The notes beneath the pieces are model-generated. The model saw only the letters and a program-made list of their open reading frames with translations. It had not been told where the DNA came from and searched no databases. From a virus (Duplodnaviria > Heunggongvirae > Uroviricota > Caudoviricetes), in IMG/VR virus record IMGVR_UViG_2698536576_000002: a DNA stretch of 26,379 nt. The stretch is one strand, 5' to 3'. Positions 11,072-16,038 of the stretch are shown piece after piece. A program made the position numbers and the translations under genes. The stretch's first letter is position 1, and the number at the start of each line of letters is the position of its first letter.

Positions 11072-11344
11072 TTACTTTTTTAAAGAATAAGGGAATATGT
11101 GCACCATATTGGAGGCTAGTGGATATATTCCTATGCTACGAGTTGTCTTTTTTAGTTGATCTATGCTTGCTTCTTTATCGGGAGCCCGGCCTCCCCACAC
11201 TGTAACTCCCTCAGGTATATCGATTGGGCGACTTTTGTTTTCATCTGTGATTTCAATCGTTTCCCCATTATTAAGCGTAATAATCAACGATGACACGTCC
11301 AGGTGTTGTGTATTCCCATTTTTATTTTTAATATCTATTTTCAT
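11072..11344 (-). CDS. Hypothetical protein, 90 aa, in AT-rich island
   Basis: ORF track only; no convincing Shine-Dalgarno; protein-like composition. Confidence 0.3.
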   Translation of the reverse strand: MKIDIKNKNGNTQHLDVSSLIITLNNGETIEITDENKSRPIDIPEGVTVWGGRAPDKEASIDQLKKTTRSIGIYPLASNMVHIFPYSLKK

Positions 11345-11614: not shown

Positions 11615-12283
11615 ATGACAGTTGCTGATTTCAAACGTCCTAAGTTGGAGCTCCCAAACGGGGCAAACAAACTACTATTACACTCTTGTTGTGCACCATG
11701 TTCCGGTGAAGTGATGGAGGCTCTTCAGGCCTCAGGAATCGACTACACCATCTTCTTCTATAATCCGAACATTCATCCTCAGAAAGAGTATTTGATTCGT
11801 AAGAATGAGAATATTCGATATGCTGAACAACATGGTGTACCGTTTATCGATGCTGATTACGACACTGACAACTGGTTTGAGCGAGCCAAAGGAATGGAAT
11901 GGGAGCCCGAACGTGGGAGGCGTTGTACTATGTGTTTTGACATGCGTTTTGAACGGACGGCGCTGTACGCCGCTGAAAATGGTTTCAGTGTGATCAGCAG
12001 TTCACTGGGCATTTCTCGCTGGAAAAATATGCAGCAGGTTAACGACAGCGGACGGCGAGCTGTCGCACATTATCCGGGCATGGTGTACTGGGATTATAAC
12101 TGGCGCAAGCAGGGAGGCTCGTCCCGCATGATTGAAATCAGCAAACGCGAACAATTCTATCAGCAGGAATATTGTGGTTGCGTGTATTCACTTCGCGATA
12201 CCAATTTACACCGCAAATCCCAGGGACGCCCTCTTATCAAAATTGGTCAACTCCACTACGGTAAAGAAGAAGGGCAGGAATGA
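11615..12283 (+). CDS. QueH-like epoxyqueuosine reductase (DUF208 family), 222 aa
   Basis: [11 protein letters not shown] near the N-terminus, [18 protein letters not shown] and YCGC Cys motifs, which I recognise as QueH family features; no search run. Confidence 0.5.
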
Positions 12284-12592
12284 TTTTTACATTACGTCAA
12301 CAGAGTGTCACAACGTTTCTATATATGGTATGCCGACCGTAATTTTCGAATCATCATGACTAATAGGCAGGTCACCTATGCCAGCAATGACCTGCTCATC
12401 TTGAAATTAGCAGAAATCTTGTAGCTATGATGTAGCTCAAAATAGTTTTTCATTCTTTTACCTGATGTCTGTTCCTGGCTGAAAACAGACTGTATTATTT
12501 AATTACGCACCACTGACACTTGTTTATTGAAGTAGTGAGTACAAAGCCACATATTTATCAGTGTATGTATACGTCAAAAACAGGAGATTGTT

Positions 12593-12682
12593 GTGCTGGT
12601 TCTGAAGTGTGCGTTAGCAATAGTGGCTGTGGTGGCAATTTATTGCCTTGTTGTTGTTCTTATGGAGCGACTTTCTGATTGA
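12593..12682 (+). CDS. Small hydrophobic ORF, 29 codons, GTG start (V/M-LVLKCALAIVAVVAIYCLVVVLMERLSD)
   Basis: AGGAG 6 nt upstream of GTG; single predicted transmembrane helix; hand-translated. Confidence 0.35.
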   Translation: MLVLKCALAIVAVVAIYCLVVVLMERLSD

Positions 12683-12816
12683 TTACATACTGGCTAAAAA
12701 AAGCGTTTGCCTGGTTTATCTTTGTCCGGCAAGGTGCGCTCATTAATCTGAAGTAAATTTATTTCTTAAGTATTCAGATTACTTCTTATGGTCGAAGTCT
12801 CCTGGCAATGTAGAAC

Positions 12817-12864
12817 CAAAATATTTACAAAAAGGAGACCCGTCGGGGATAGCCCTGCCGGGTC
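12817..12864 (-). terminator. Intrinsic terminator downstream of the YeaR-like gene
   Basis: GC-rich stem GACCCG...CGGGTC followed on the minus strand by TCCTTTTTGTAAATATTTT. Confidence 0.5.
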
Positions 12865-12894
12865 TGACTGTTAAAGCATTTTTAATATGATCAT

Positions 12895-13239
12895 CTATTT
12901 TTTGGTGCTATAGACTTTTTCGCCTGAGAAGTCTGGAGCGACCCAAAAGTTAATATTAAACTGAGCATCATCGCTTAGTTCAACACGGTGCCAGTATTGT
13001 GGTGGGCTTGTTGCAAAAGAGCCAGCATTAATAACTACTTTTATCTCTGGTTCAGTAGTATTCTCATCAGCAAAACCATAATATGTTACAGTGCCTTCCA
13101 TTACGCACAACTGCCCAAAAACACCTGCTGCTGTATTATGATGTGTTAATAATGCTGAAGGTACGTTCTCTTTTGTGAAGAACGGAGTTGAGCGTTTGAT
13201 TACCCAATCTTTAGGAATTCTCTTGTGTGTCATAACCAC
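12895..13239 (-). CDS. DUF1971-family protein (YeaR-like), 114 aa
   Basis: RSTPFF...VMEGTVTYYGFADE...EPE...AGSFATSPPQYWHRVE...FNINFWVAP pattern resembling E. coli YeaR as I remember it; AGGAGGTG RBS. Confidence 0.55.
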   Translation of the reverse strand: MVMTHKRIPKDWVIKRSTPFFTKENVPSALLTHHNTAAGVFGQLCVMEGTVTYYGFADENTTEPEIKVVINAGSFATSPPQYWHRVELSDDAQFNINFWVAPDFSGEKVYSTKK

Positions 13240-15884: not shown

Positions 15885-15960
<76 letters not shown>

Positions 15961-15963
15961 TAT

Positions 15964-16038
<75 letters not shown>

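Follow-up and report, generated by a model that had tools for sequence, protein, structure and literature searches.

Ibs/Sib, ShoB/OhsC, TisB/IstR, DinQ/AgrB and ZorO/OrzO are the very short type I toxins of enterobacteria. Loci of this kind are defined by a conserved antisense sRNA gene in combination with a long, structured toxin mRNA. MgtS, KdpF, CydX, AcrZ, MgrB, PmrR and SgrT belong to the small regulatory inner-membrane proteins of E. coli and Salmonella. Most characterised single-helix peptides of up to 50 amino acids act by binding a larger membrane protein, as is the case for MgtS, KdpF, CydX, AcrZ and MgrB. Additionally, prophage morons and small phage membrane proteins have been described that exclude other phages, such as HK97 gp15, the Cor-type exclusion proteins and DicB, which acts on membrane receptors. 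The Hok/Gef proteins, finally, are encoded by loci such as hok-mok-sok of R1 parB, hokD/relF and hokW-sokW of Sakai Sp5. Hok is a protein of approximately 50 amino acids with a periplasmic C-terminal domain, and its loci comprise a mok frame, the Sok antisense RNA and a fold-back mRNA.

The locus described here encodes a hydrophobic peptide of 29 residues. It is located in a stretch of 26,379 nucleotides, hereafter called the window, that matches part of a Rac-like lambdoid E. coli prophage with 100% identity. Judging from the ORF and from its homologues, it is very probably a real membrane-peptide gene. The gene order of the prophage is intR, xisR, rcbA, ralR, recT, recE, kilR, sieB, the immunity and replication genes and queH, followed by a gap, DUF1971, DUF1367/1364/1133, two tRNAs, the lysis genes and trkG. 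The gap, which holds the peptide ORF, measures 611 nt (12284-12894) and is without any RefSeq annotation in the 100% identical genome. The features of this region are the following.

11615-12283, plus strand: queH, the left border of the gap
12367-12395: second terminator-like hairpin between queH and the mobile module
12467-12504, plus strand: terminator-like hairpin (GTCTGTT, 10-nt loop, AACAGAC, T-rich tail)
12517-12694, plus strand: mobile module consisting of the promoter-like region, the Shine–Dalgarno sequence, the ORF and 12 nt of 3′ flank, delimited by BLAST against phage Tritos
12527-12532, plus strand: candidate −35 hexamer TTGAAG, 17 nt before the candidate −10 hexamer, 0.72-0.98 conserved
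12550-12555, plus strand: candidate −10 hexamer CATATT, at least 0.97 conserved per position in 58 unique upstream sequences
12582-12586, plus strand: Shine–Dalgarno sequence AGGAG, 6 nt before the GTG, with a GGAG core that is retained in the homologues
12593-12682, plus strand: peptide gene with a GTG start and a TGA stop, encoding a single-pass hydrophobic product, supported by the sequence, the ORF list and the homologues
12696-12732, minus strand: terminator-like hairpin (stem 12707-12711/12728-12732, T7 run 12696-12702)
12724-12762, plus strand: remnant of approximately 40 nt of a hok mRNA leader and Sok target, found by alignment to Tritos
12895-13233, minus strand: DUF1971 gene, the right border of the gap

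The three terminator-like hairpins in this list were read directly from the sequence. An earlier note on this DNA had placed the ORF in otherwise non-coding DNA. This is correct in the sense that the gap is unannotated, yet the gap does hold terminator-like hairpins as well as a short remnant of a hok leader. The plus-strand hairpin at 12467-12504, which was skipped by the promoter and terminator scan because its loop is longer than 8 nt, would insulate the ORF from upstream transcription. The minus-strand hairpin was not flagged by the scan. It ends 14-20 nt short of the ORF, without overlapping it, and the 93%-identical class has a hairpin in another register, with a T6 run behind it. An orphan Sok-like RNA or some other small minus-strand transcript could terminate here; no convincing promoter was found for a minus-strand transcript ending at 12696-12732. 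The same hairpin is situated approximately 100 nt beyond the terminator of DUF1971 (12835-12864).

The reading frame extends on the plus strand from the GTG at 12593 to the TGA at 12680-12682, and its translation is MLVLKCALAIVAVVAIYCLVVVLMERLSD. The frame, its GTG start, the AGGAG 6 nt ahead of it, the length of 29 codons and the hydrophobic nature of the product had all been pointed out in the earlier note and are confirmed by the sequence and the ORF list. The peptide consists of a short N-terminus with Lys5, a 19-residue helix and an acidic tail of five residues (E/D-R/H-L-S-D). The hydrophobic core spans residues 6-24 and has a mean Kyte-Doolittle value of +3.07; the GRAVY of the whole peptide is 2.06 and its net charge is approximately zero. 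The positive-inside rule makes N-in, C-out the likely orientation, which would leave Lys5 in the cytoplasm and the acidic tail in the periplasm.

The size of the ORF is by itself unremarkable, as there are 13 ORFs of 20 aa or longer that overlap the 611-nt gap. The combination of features is rare. A start codon 5-10 nt after a Shine–Dalgarno-like pentamer, opening an ORF of 20-60 aa that contains a 19-residue stretch with a mean Kyte-Doolittle value of at least 2.5, turned up in 0.3% of the shuffled versions of the gap (n = 2000) and is found a single time across both strands of the whole 26-kb window. This rarity, both in the shuffles and in the window, indicates that the combination reflects more than chance. 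That the ORF is a piece of a longer gene was considered and rejected, because a TGA at 12536-12538 closes the frame 57 nt ahead of the GTG and the ORF has a constant length across contexts.

Indications for a protein-coding function come from the homologues. Positions 12525-12694 of the window are common to four Escherichia phages (HannyBb, Tritos, Evi and mEp460_ev081) with 77-80% identity, and HannyBb additionally matches the window upstream, back to queH. The frame is intact in all four phages, and the differences are mostly synonymous third-position changes. With a degenerate DNA pattern, more than 120 further loci were retrieved from IMG/VR, E. albertii, E. ruysiae, Shigella flexneri and three short MAG contigs. 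Approximately 125 of the 129 loci have an intact ORF of exactly 29 codons; broken copies comprise two frameshifted ones and one without a stop codon. Among 27 distinct intact alleles, the variable sites are distributed as 8/5/19 over the three codon positions. The Nei-Gojobori pN/pS ratio equals 0.30 when the entire ORF is counted and 0.23 when only the part free of the constraint imposed by the search pattern is taken. This is the lowest value of the six frames, with 0.36 for the codon-complementary reverse frame and 0.62-0.91 for the others. Replacements are conservative (A/V/T/I, D/E, R/H) and sixteen residues are invariant, i.e., M1, L2, L4, K5, L8, A9, I10, A12, I16, Y17, C18, L19, V22, L23, M24 and D29. 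The start codon is conserved as well, being GTG in all prophage copies, and all aligned homologues have the purine core GGAG, present as AGGAG, GGAGG or GGGAG with majority fractions of 0.86-1.00. By the measure of these substitution patterns, the peptide gene is under purifying selection, and the proposal in the earlier note of a translatable single-helix membrane peptide is borne out.

The gene has nevertheless been overlooked by annotation. Among the matches listed in complete E. coli genomes, no RefSeq row carries an annotation under the module. A 37-aa version starting from a non-canonical upstream codon and labelled ‘membrane protein’ is present in a few GenBank/ENA records. In line with this, a query padded to 40 aa retrieved 14 E. 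coli proteins, mostly 37-aa calls from the non-canonical upstream start, and three of the 14 are named ‘membrane protein’ or ‘hypothetical protein’. Against this upstream call, the conserved GTG with its Shine–Dalgarno sequence is the credible start. Scanning the peptide against Pfam, NCBIfam and PHROGs gave no family match; matches to ATP synthase c were discarded as noise, with 13-15 bits compared to cut-offs above 116. With an exhaustive HMMER search, only six close relatives were retrieved from 1.84 billion cluster representatives, so that the family is narrow and distant homologues are out of reach. Searching phages and plasmids with tblastn gave no hits, presumably as a result of masking of the peptide by the low-complexity filter, and homologous loci were therefore sought at the DNA level. 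Five substrings of the peptide sequence were absent from a full-text literature search, the peptide and its DNA are absent from the supplements of the Sakai small-gene paper, and the ORF is absent from the examined part of Sakai Sp5. The accessible part of the hokW-sokW paper does not mention the upstream ORF (PMC8621323). In HannyBb (L002 2722-3011), two opposite-strand CDSs annotated as ‘hypothetical protein’ run across the peptide gene and the 29-codon frame is missed; these opposite-strand calls are probably spurious.

The conserved unit to which the ORF belongs is short. Its edges lie 76 nt ahead of the start codon and 12 nt past the stop codon of the ORF, and the resulting module of approximately 178 nt is the only stretch that the window has in common with the hok-linked phages and with the copy on the Shigella plasmid. 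Several contexts are found on the left-hand side of the module, and three on the right-hand side, namely hok, DUF1971, and a decayed hok with icsP behind it. Being a discrete unit with mosaic boundaries and varied neighbourhoods in the phage operon structure, the module has the traits of a moron. Of 5426 complete E. coli genomes, 1910 (35%) have the module, at 2163 places, and so do 124 Shigella plasmid records of the pCP301/M90T type, where the identity is approximately 80%. In some 277 E. coli genomes, the match to the window extends only from approximately position 12545 onward.

Within the module, CATATT is the most conserved element upstream of the Shine–Dalgarno sequence. The −35 element occurs as TTGAAG or TTGAAT and is disrupted in 7 of the 58 upstream variants. 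The spacer always measures 17 nt (58/58 unique sequences), despite the existence of 17 different spacer sequences. Together, the two hexamers match the sigma-70 consensus at 8 of 12 positions, which is under the scan threshold of 9/12. TTGAAG-17-CATATT looks like a moderate sigma-70 promoter, and the odds that the peptide gene is transcribed from a promoter of its own appear to be about even.

The copy on the Shigella virulence plasmid pCP301 (L134 3072-3161) is intact, starts with ATG and encodes MLVLKGTLAIAAVMTIYCLIVVLMERFSD. It has diverged by approximately 20% and yet has kept the frame, the GTG being changed to ATG. In pWR100 of strain M90T, the copy is found at CP037924 complement(90908..90997), where a Prokka call exists (CP037924_00134, hypothetical protein). 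Downstream of the pCP301 copy, a decayed hok promoter and leader are followed by icsP/sopA approximately 260-290 nt further on, and the peptide gene as such is situated approximately 260-350 nt ahead of icsP/sopA. It thereby falls in the long H-NS-silenced, VirB-controlled stretch that serves as a model for anti-silencing. The table of transcription start sites from the M90T dRNA-seq study has no start at the predicted peptide promoter (PMC7132871). The nearest same-strand starts are 90709 and 90726, belonging to icsP, and 91318, approximately 320 nt upstream (PMC7132871). Transcription from this orphan start at 91318 could read through the Shigella peptide gene.

A genuine tie to type I toxin-antitoxin biology does exist, as in most cases a hok/sok cassette follows directly downstream of the ORF. 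In 94 of the 110 loci with enough flank, a hok gene of the hokD/hokW type begins 210-211 nt after the ORF stop. The hok promoter is TTGGCG-17-TAGAAT, and its −35 element starts 10 nt past this stop. In Tritos, the Rfam sok/hok-leader model RF01794 starts 40 nt past the ORF stop (111.7 bits), and this match belongs to the neighbouring hok gene. E. coli LF82 carries a module with 100% identity to that of the Tritos type. The association works out differently when seen from the side of hok. Loci of the hokD type are found at 11,342 places in 4767 genomes, and the ORF and hok are contiguous in only 1627 genomes; other hok copies start at the hok promoter or keep only the last ~10 codons of the ORF. 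The latter is seen in many of the O157:H7-type hokD loci, which retain these codons upstream of the hok promoter and in which the query is matched only from position 129 or 137 onward. This truncation points to a recurrent breakpoint inside the ORF, or to the stretch being the upstream part of the hok promoter.

Conversely, 353 E. coli genomes, including those of the window type, have the ORF beside DUF1971 and without hok. The remnant at 12724-12762 aligns to Tritos L003 2774-2815 with a local score of 28, the shuffle maximum being 26 (0/500), and no Rfam match to sok or RF01794 was found in the window. A live hok/sok locus downstream of the ORF was rejected for the window on these grounds, i.e., a remnant of only ~40 nt and the missing Rfam match. 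The presence of the hok-leader remnant downstream of the ORF implies that the DUF1971 arrangement derives from the ORF-hok arrangement by loss of hok. As hok has been lost beside an intact ORF both in the DUF1971 lineage and on the Shigella plasmid, at least two losses must have occurred.

Compared to the described systems, the ORF is similar to the small regulatory membrane proteins in its architecture and to the morons in its genetic behaviour. It shares with the former a length of at most 50 aa, a single helix, an ordinary Shine–Dalgarno sequence and the absence of detectable antisense control, and short acidic tails like that of the peptide are present in MgtS and CydX. There is, however, no sequence relationship, and whereas the genes of the regulatory proteins are located within or beside their partner's operon, the ORF is mobile cargo without a constant protein-coding neighbour. 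Its conserved gene neighbourhood points to no partner protein. As with morons, the ORF forms an autonomous small cassette with (predicted) promoter-like signals, resides in a variable cargo hotspot and is retained in defective prophages. Because the gene is intact in defective prophages and on a plasmid without phage regulatory circuits, a strongly lethal product seems unlikely.

The explanation that we prefer is that of a mobile prophage cargo gene for a membrane modulator. A cassette of approximately 178 nt, consisting of the candidate sigma-70 promoter TTGAAG-17-CATATT, AGGAG, GTG and 29 codons, moves as a unit among the lambdoid prophages of Escherichia and Shigella. In the lineage of the window, the hok cassette was lost and the DUF1971 gene came in its place, leaving the peptide gene intact. 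The peptide would insert in the inner membrane as a single helix and bind a larger membrane protein or complex, either of the host or of an incoming phage, which it would modulate without killing the cell. Taken as one statement (a real gene, a sigma-70 cassette of its own, a non-lethal membrane modulator and mobile prophage cargo), this explanation has an even chance of being right. The role as a non-lethal modulator, which is suggested by analogy and by the absence of toxin-type regulation, is put forward tentatively, at slightly less than even. The linkage to hok at a fixed distance could mean that both have a shared, possibly membrane-damaging function, and the GTG with which every prophage copy starts could be the outcome of selection to keep the expression of a harmful product low.

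The main rival, although an unlikely one, is that the peptide has an accessory function for hok or for the lytic programme of the phage. It would then be produced at induction by read-through from pR or by other upstream transcription, and would cooperate with or tune Hok or lysis, e.g., through depolarisation, lysis timing or abortive infection. The constant spacing between the ORF and hok, with the hok −35 element directly past the ORF stop, fits well with such a role. Moreover, there is no terminator between both genes, so that transcripts of the ORF would run on into hok, and the ORF is read in the direction of the early-right operon. The lack of a start site at the predicted promoter in the Shigella M90T table is consistent with upstream transcription as well. 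According to the accessible part of the hokW-sokW paper, hokW-sokW aids the release of phage Sp5 (PMC8621323), which would match an accessory function. However, the ORF is intact without hok in two independent lineages, i.e., the 353 E. coli genomes and the 124 Shigella plasmids, and it is missing from most hokD-type loci. In addition, the ORF is preceded in many loci by a gene on the other strand, and a local promoter is therefore needed there.

Less probable still is a type I toxin that damages the inner membrane and is held in check by an overlooked antisense RNA. The peptide does show the generic trait of such toxins, being a hydrophobic peptide of less than 60 aa with one transmembrane helix. 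Its size and hydrophobicity are those of toxins of the Ibs, ShoB or Fst type, and it falls within the 19-35 aa length range of the very short type I toxins, which likewise have a single hydrophobic helix. A bona fide type I system adjoins the ORF in most loci, and the GTG start of all prophage copies can be listed on the same side. The similarity to Hok/Gef includes the small size, the hydrophobicity, a Lys on the N-terminal side and a Cys in the helix, and both genes occupy the same prophage region and strand. Yet the ORF encodes only five residues after the helix, where Hok has its periplasmic domain, and it has no mok frame, no Sok antisense and no fold-back mRNA. A search with Pfam Hok_Gef (PF01848) gave no match to the peptide at E ≤ 10. 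The short type I toxins are cationic, whereas the peptide has no appreciable net charge and ends in an acidic tail.

As to the antisense RNA itself, the earlier note had seen none by eye, and scanning of the minus strand agrees with this: there is no conserved antisense promoter or terminator in the module of the window or in the Shigella plasmid copy. In Tritos, a promoter-like site on the minus strand (L003 2658-2687, TTAACT-18-TAAAAT) lies across the ORF stop and would give an antisense transcript. This site is, however, missing from the window and from the Shigella copy and is altered in most homologues, where the −10 element TAAAAT is replaced by TGAAAT. The module contains no terminator for an antisense RNA, and its edges leave no space for a conserved partner gene. 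The gap has no Rfam match, even at E ≤ 10. The stability of the mRNA is not unusual (z = −1.29 in the window, −0.88 in Tritos), and the minimum-free-energy folds of both mRNAs are unrelated. Finally, the complementarity of the ORF mRNA to Sok and to the Sok remnant is no better than that of shuffled sequences, of which 133/300 and 39/300 do as well. Action of Sok in trans on the ORF mRNA was rejected for this reason. Neither the antisense sRNA gene nor the structured mRNA that typify the short type I toxins was found for the ORF. As the antisense features were sought and not found, the idea of a toxin with its own antisense RNA is not supported by the sequence data. Of the two possibilities that the earlier note had raised, a small membrane toxin or a small regulatory membrane protein, the resemblance in size and hydrophobicity and the regulatory option therefore stand, and the antisense features of a type I locus do not.

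It is also doubtful, and slightly more so, that the peptide is a third, protein component of hokD/hokW-sok, either protecting the lysogen from leaky Hok or potentiating Hok. The peptide would meet Hok in the inner membrane, with potentiation taking place during phage induction or abortive infection. The orphan copies, in the window and on the Shigella plasmid, would survive by acting on other Hok paralogues in the cell.

A terminator-like hairpin (GGCAA-TTTA-TTGCC with a T-rich run) is present inside the ORF; it was rejected as an attenuator, since it shows no covariation and has a G.U pair in most copies and a mismatch in one. It is highly improbable that the locus is no protein gene and owes its conservation to a function at the DNA or RNA level (a hok promoter element, an attenuator or a leader peptide of irrelevant sequence). 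This hairpin speaks for such a function, and so does the fact that in O157:H7-type loci the last ~10 codons accompany hok without the remainder of the ORF. Against it, the substitutions follow a frame-specific pattern, copies with approximately 20% divergence and copies without hok have kept the length, start and stop of the ORF, and the hairpin lacks covariation.

Under the preferred explanation of a mobile gene for a membrane modulator, the locus encodes a small prophage-encoded membrane protein that is widespread, conserved and overlooked, with nothing so far pointing to a new principle. Provided that the peptide is produced, the pan-genome of E. coli and Shigella gains a conserved small membrane protein that standard annotation has missed. 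Two well-studied loci carry the peptide gene, one ahead of hok/sok in lambdoid prophages and the other ahead of icsP on the virulence plasmid of Shigella. Studies that used deletions or reporter constructs at either place may have deleted it or carried it along without being aware of this. Its fixed place beside hok poses the concrete, testable question whether small membrane peptides have a modulating effect on type I toxins or on the exclusion of phages.

Some further elements of the prophage deserve mention. The Rfam matches in the window are RalA and two tRNAs. RalR/RalA is the known type I toxin-antitoxin pair of Rac and is located at 744-1049 and 769-947 (Rfam RF02694, 225 bits), which means that a genuine type I system is present elsewhere in the same window. 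The cargo site, between the replication genes and the Q/nin region, is a highly variable hotspot of accessory genes. In the window, the cargo around the gap consists of a homologue of the epoxyqueuosine reductase QueH and a DUF1971/TehB-like gene; in a related class, the left-hand cargo is instead composed of an MFS transporter, a gamma-glutamylcyclotransferase and a LysR regulator. The two prophage tRNA genes (15885-15957 and 15964-16035) are situated upstream of the lysis cassette and are annotated as tRNA-Thr and tRNA-Gly in the identical RefSeq genome.
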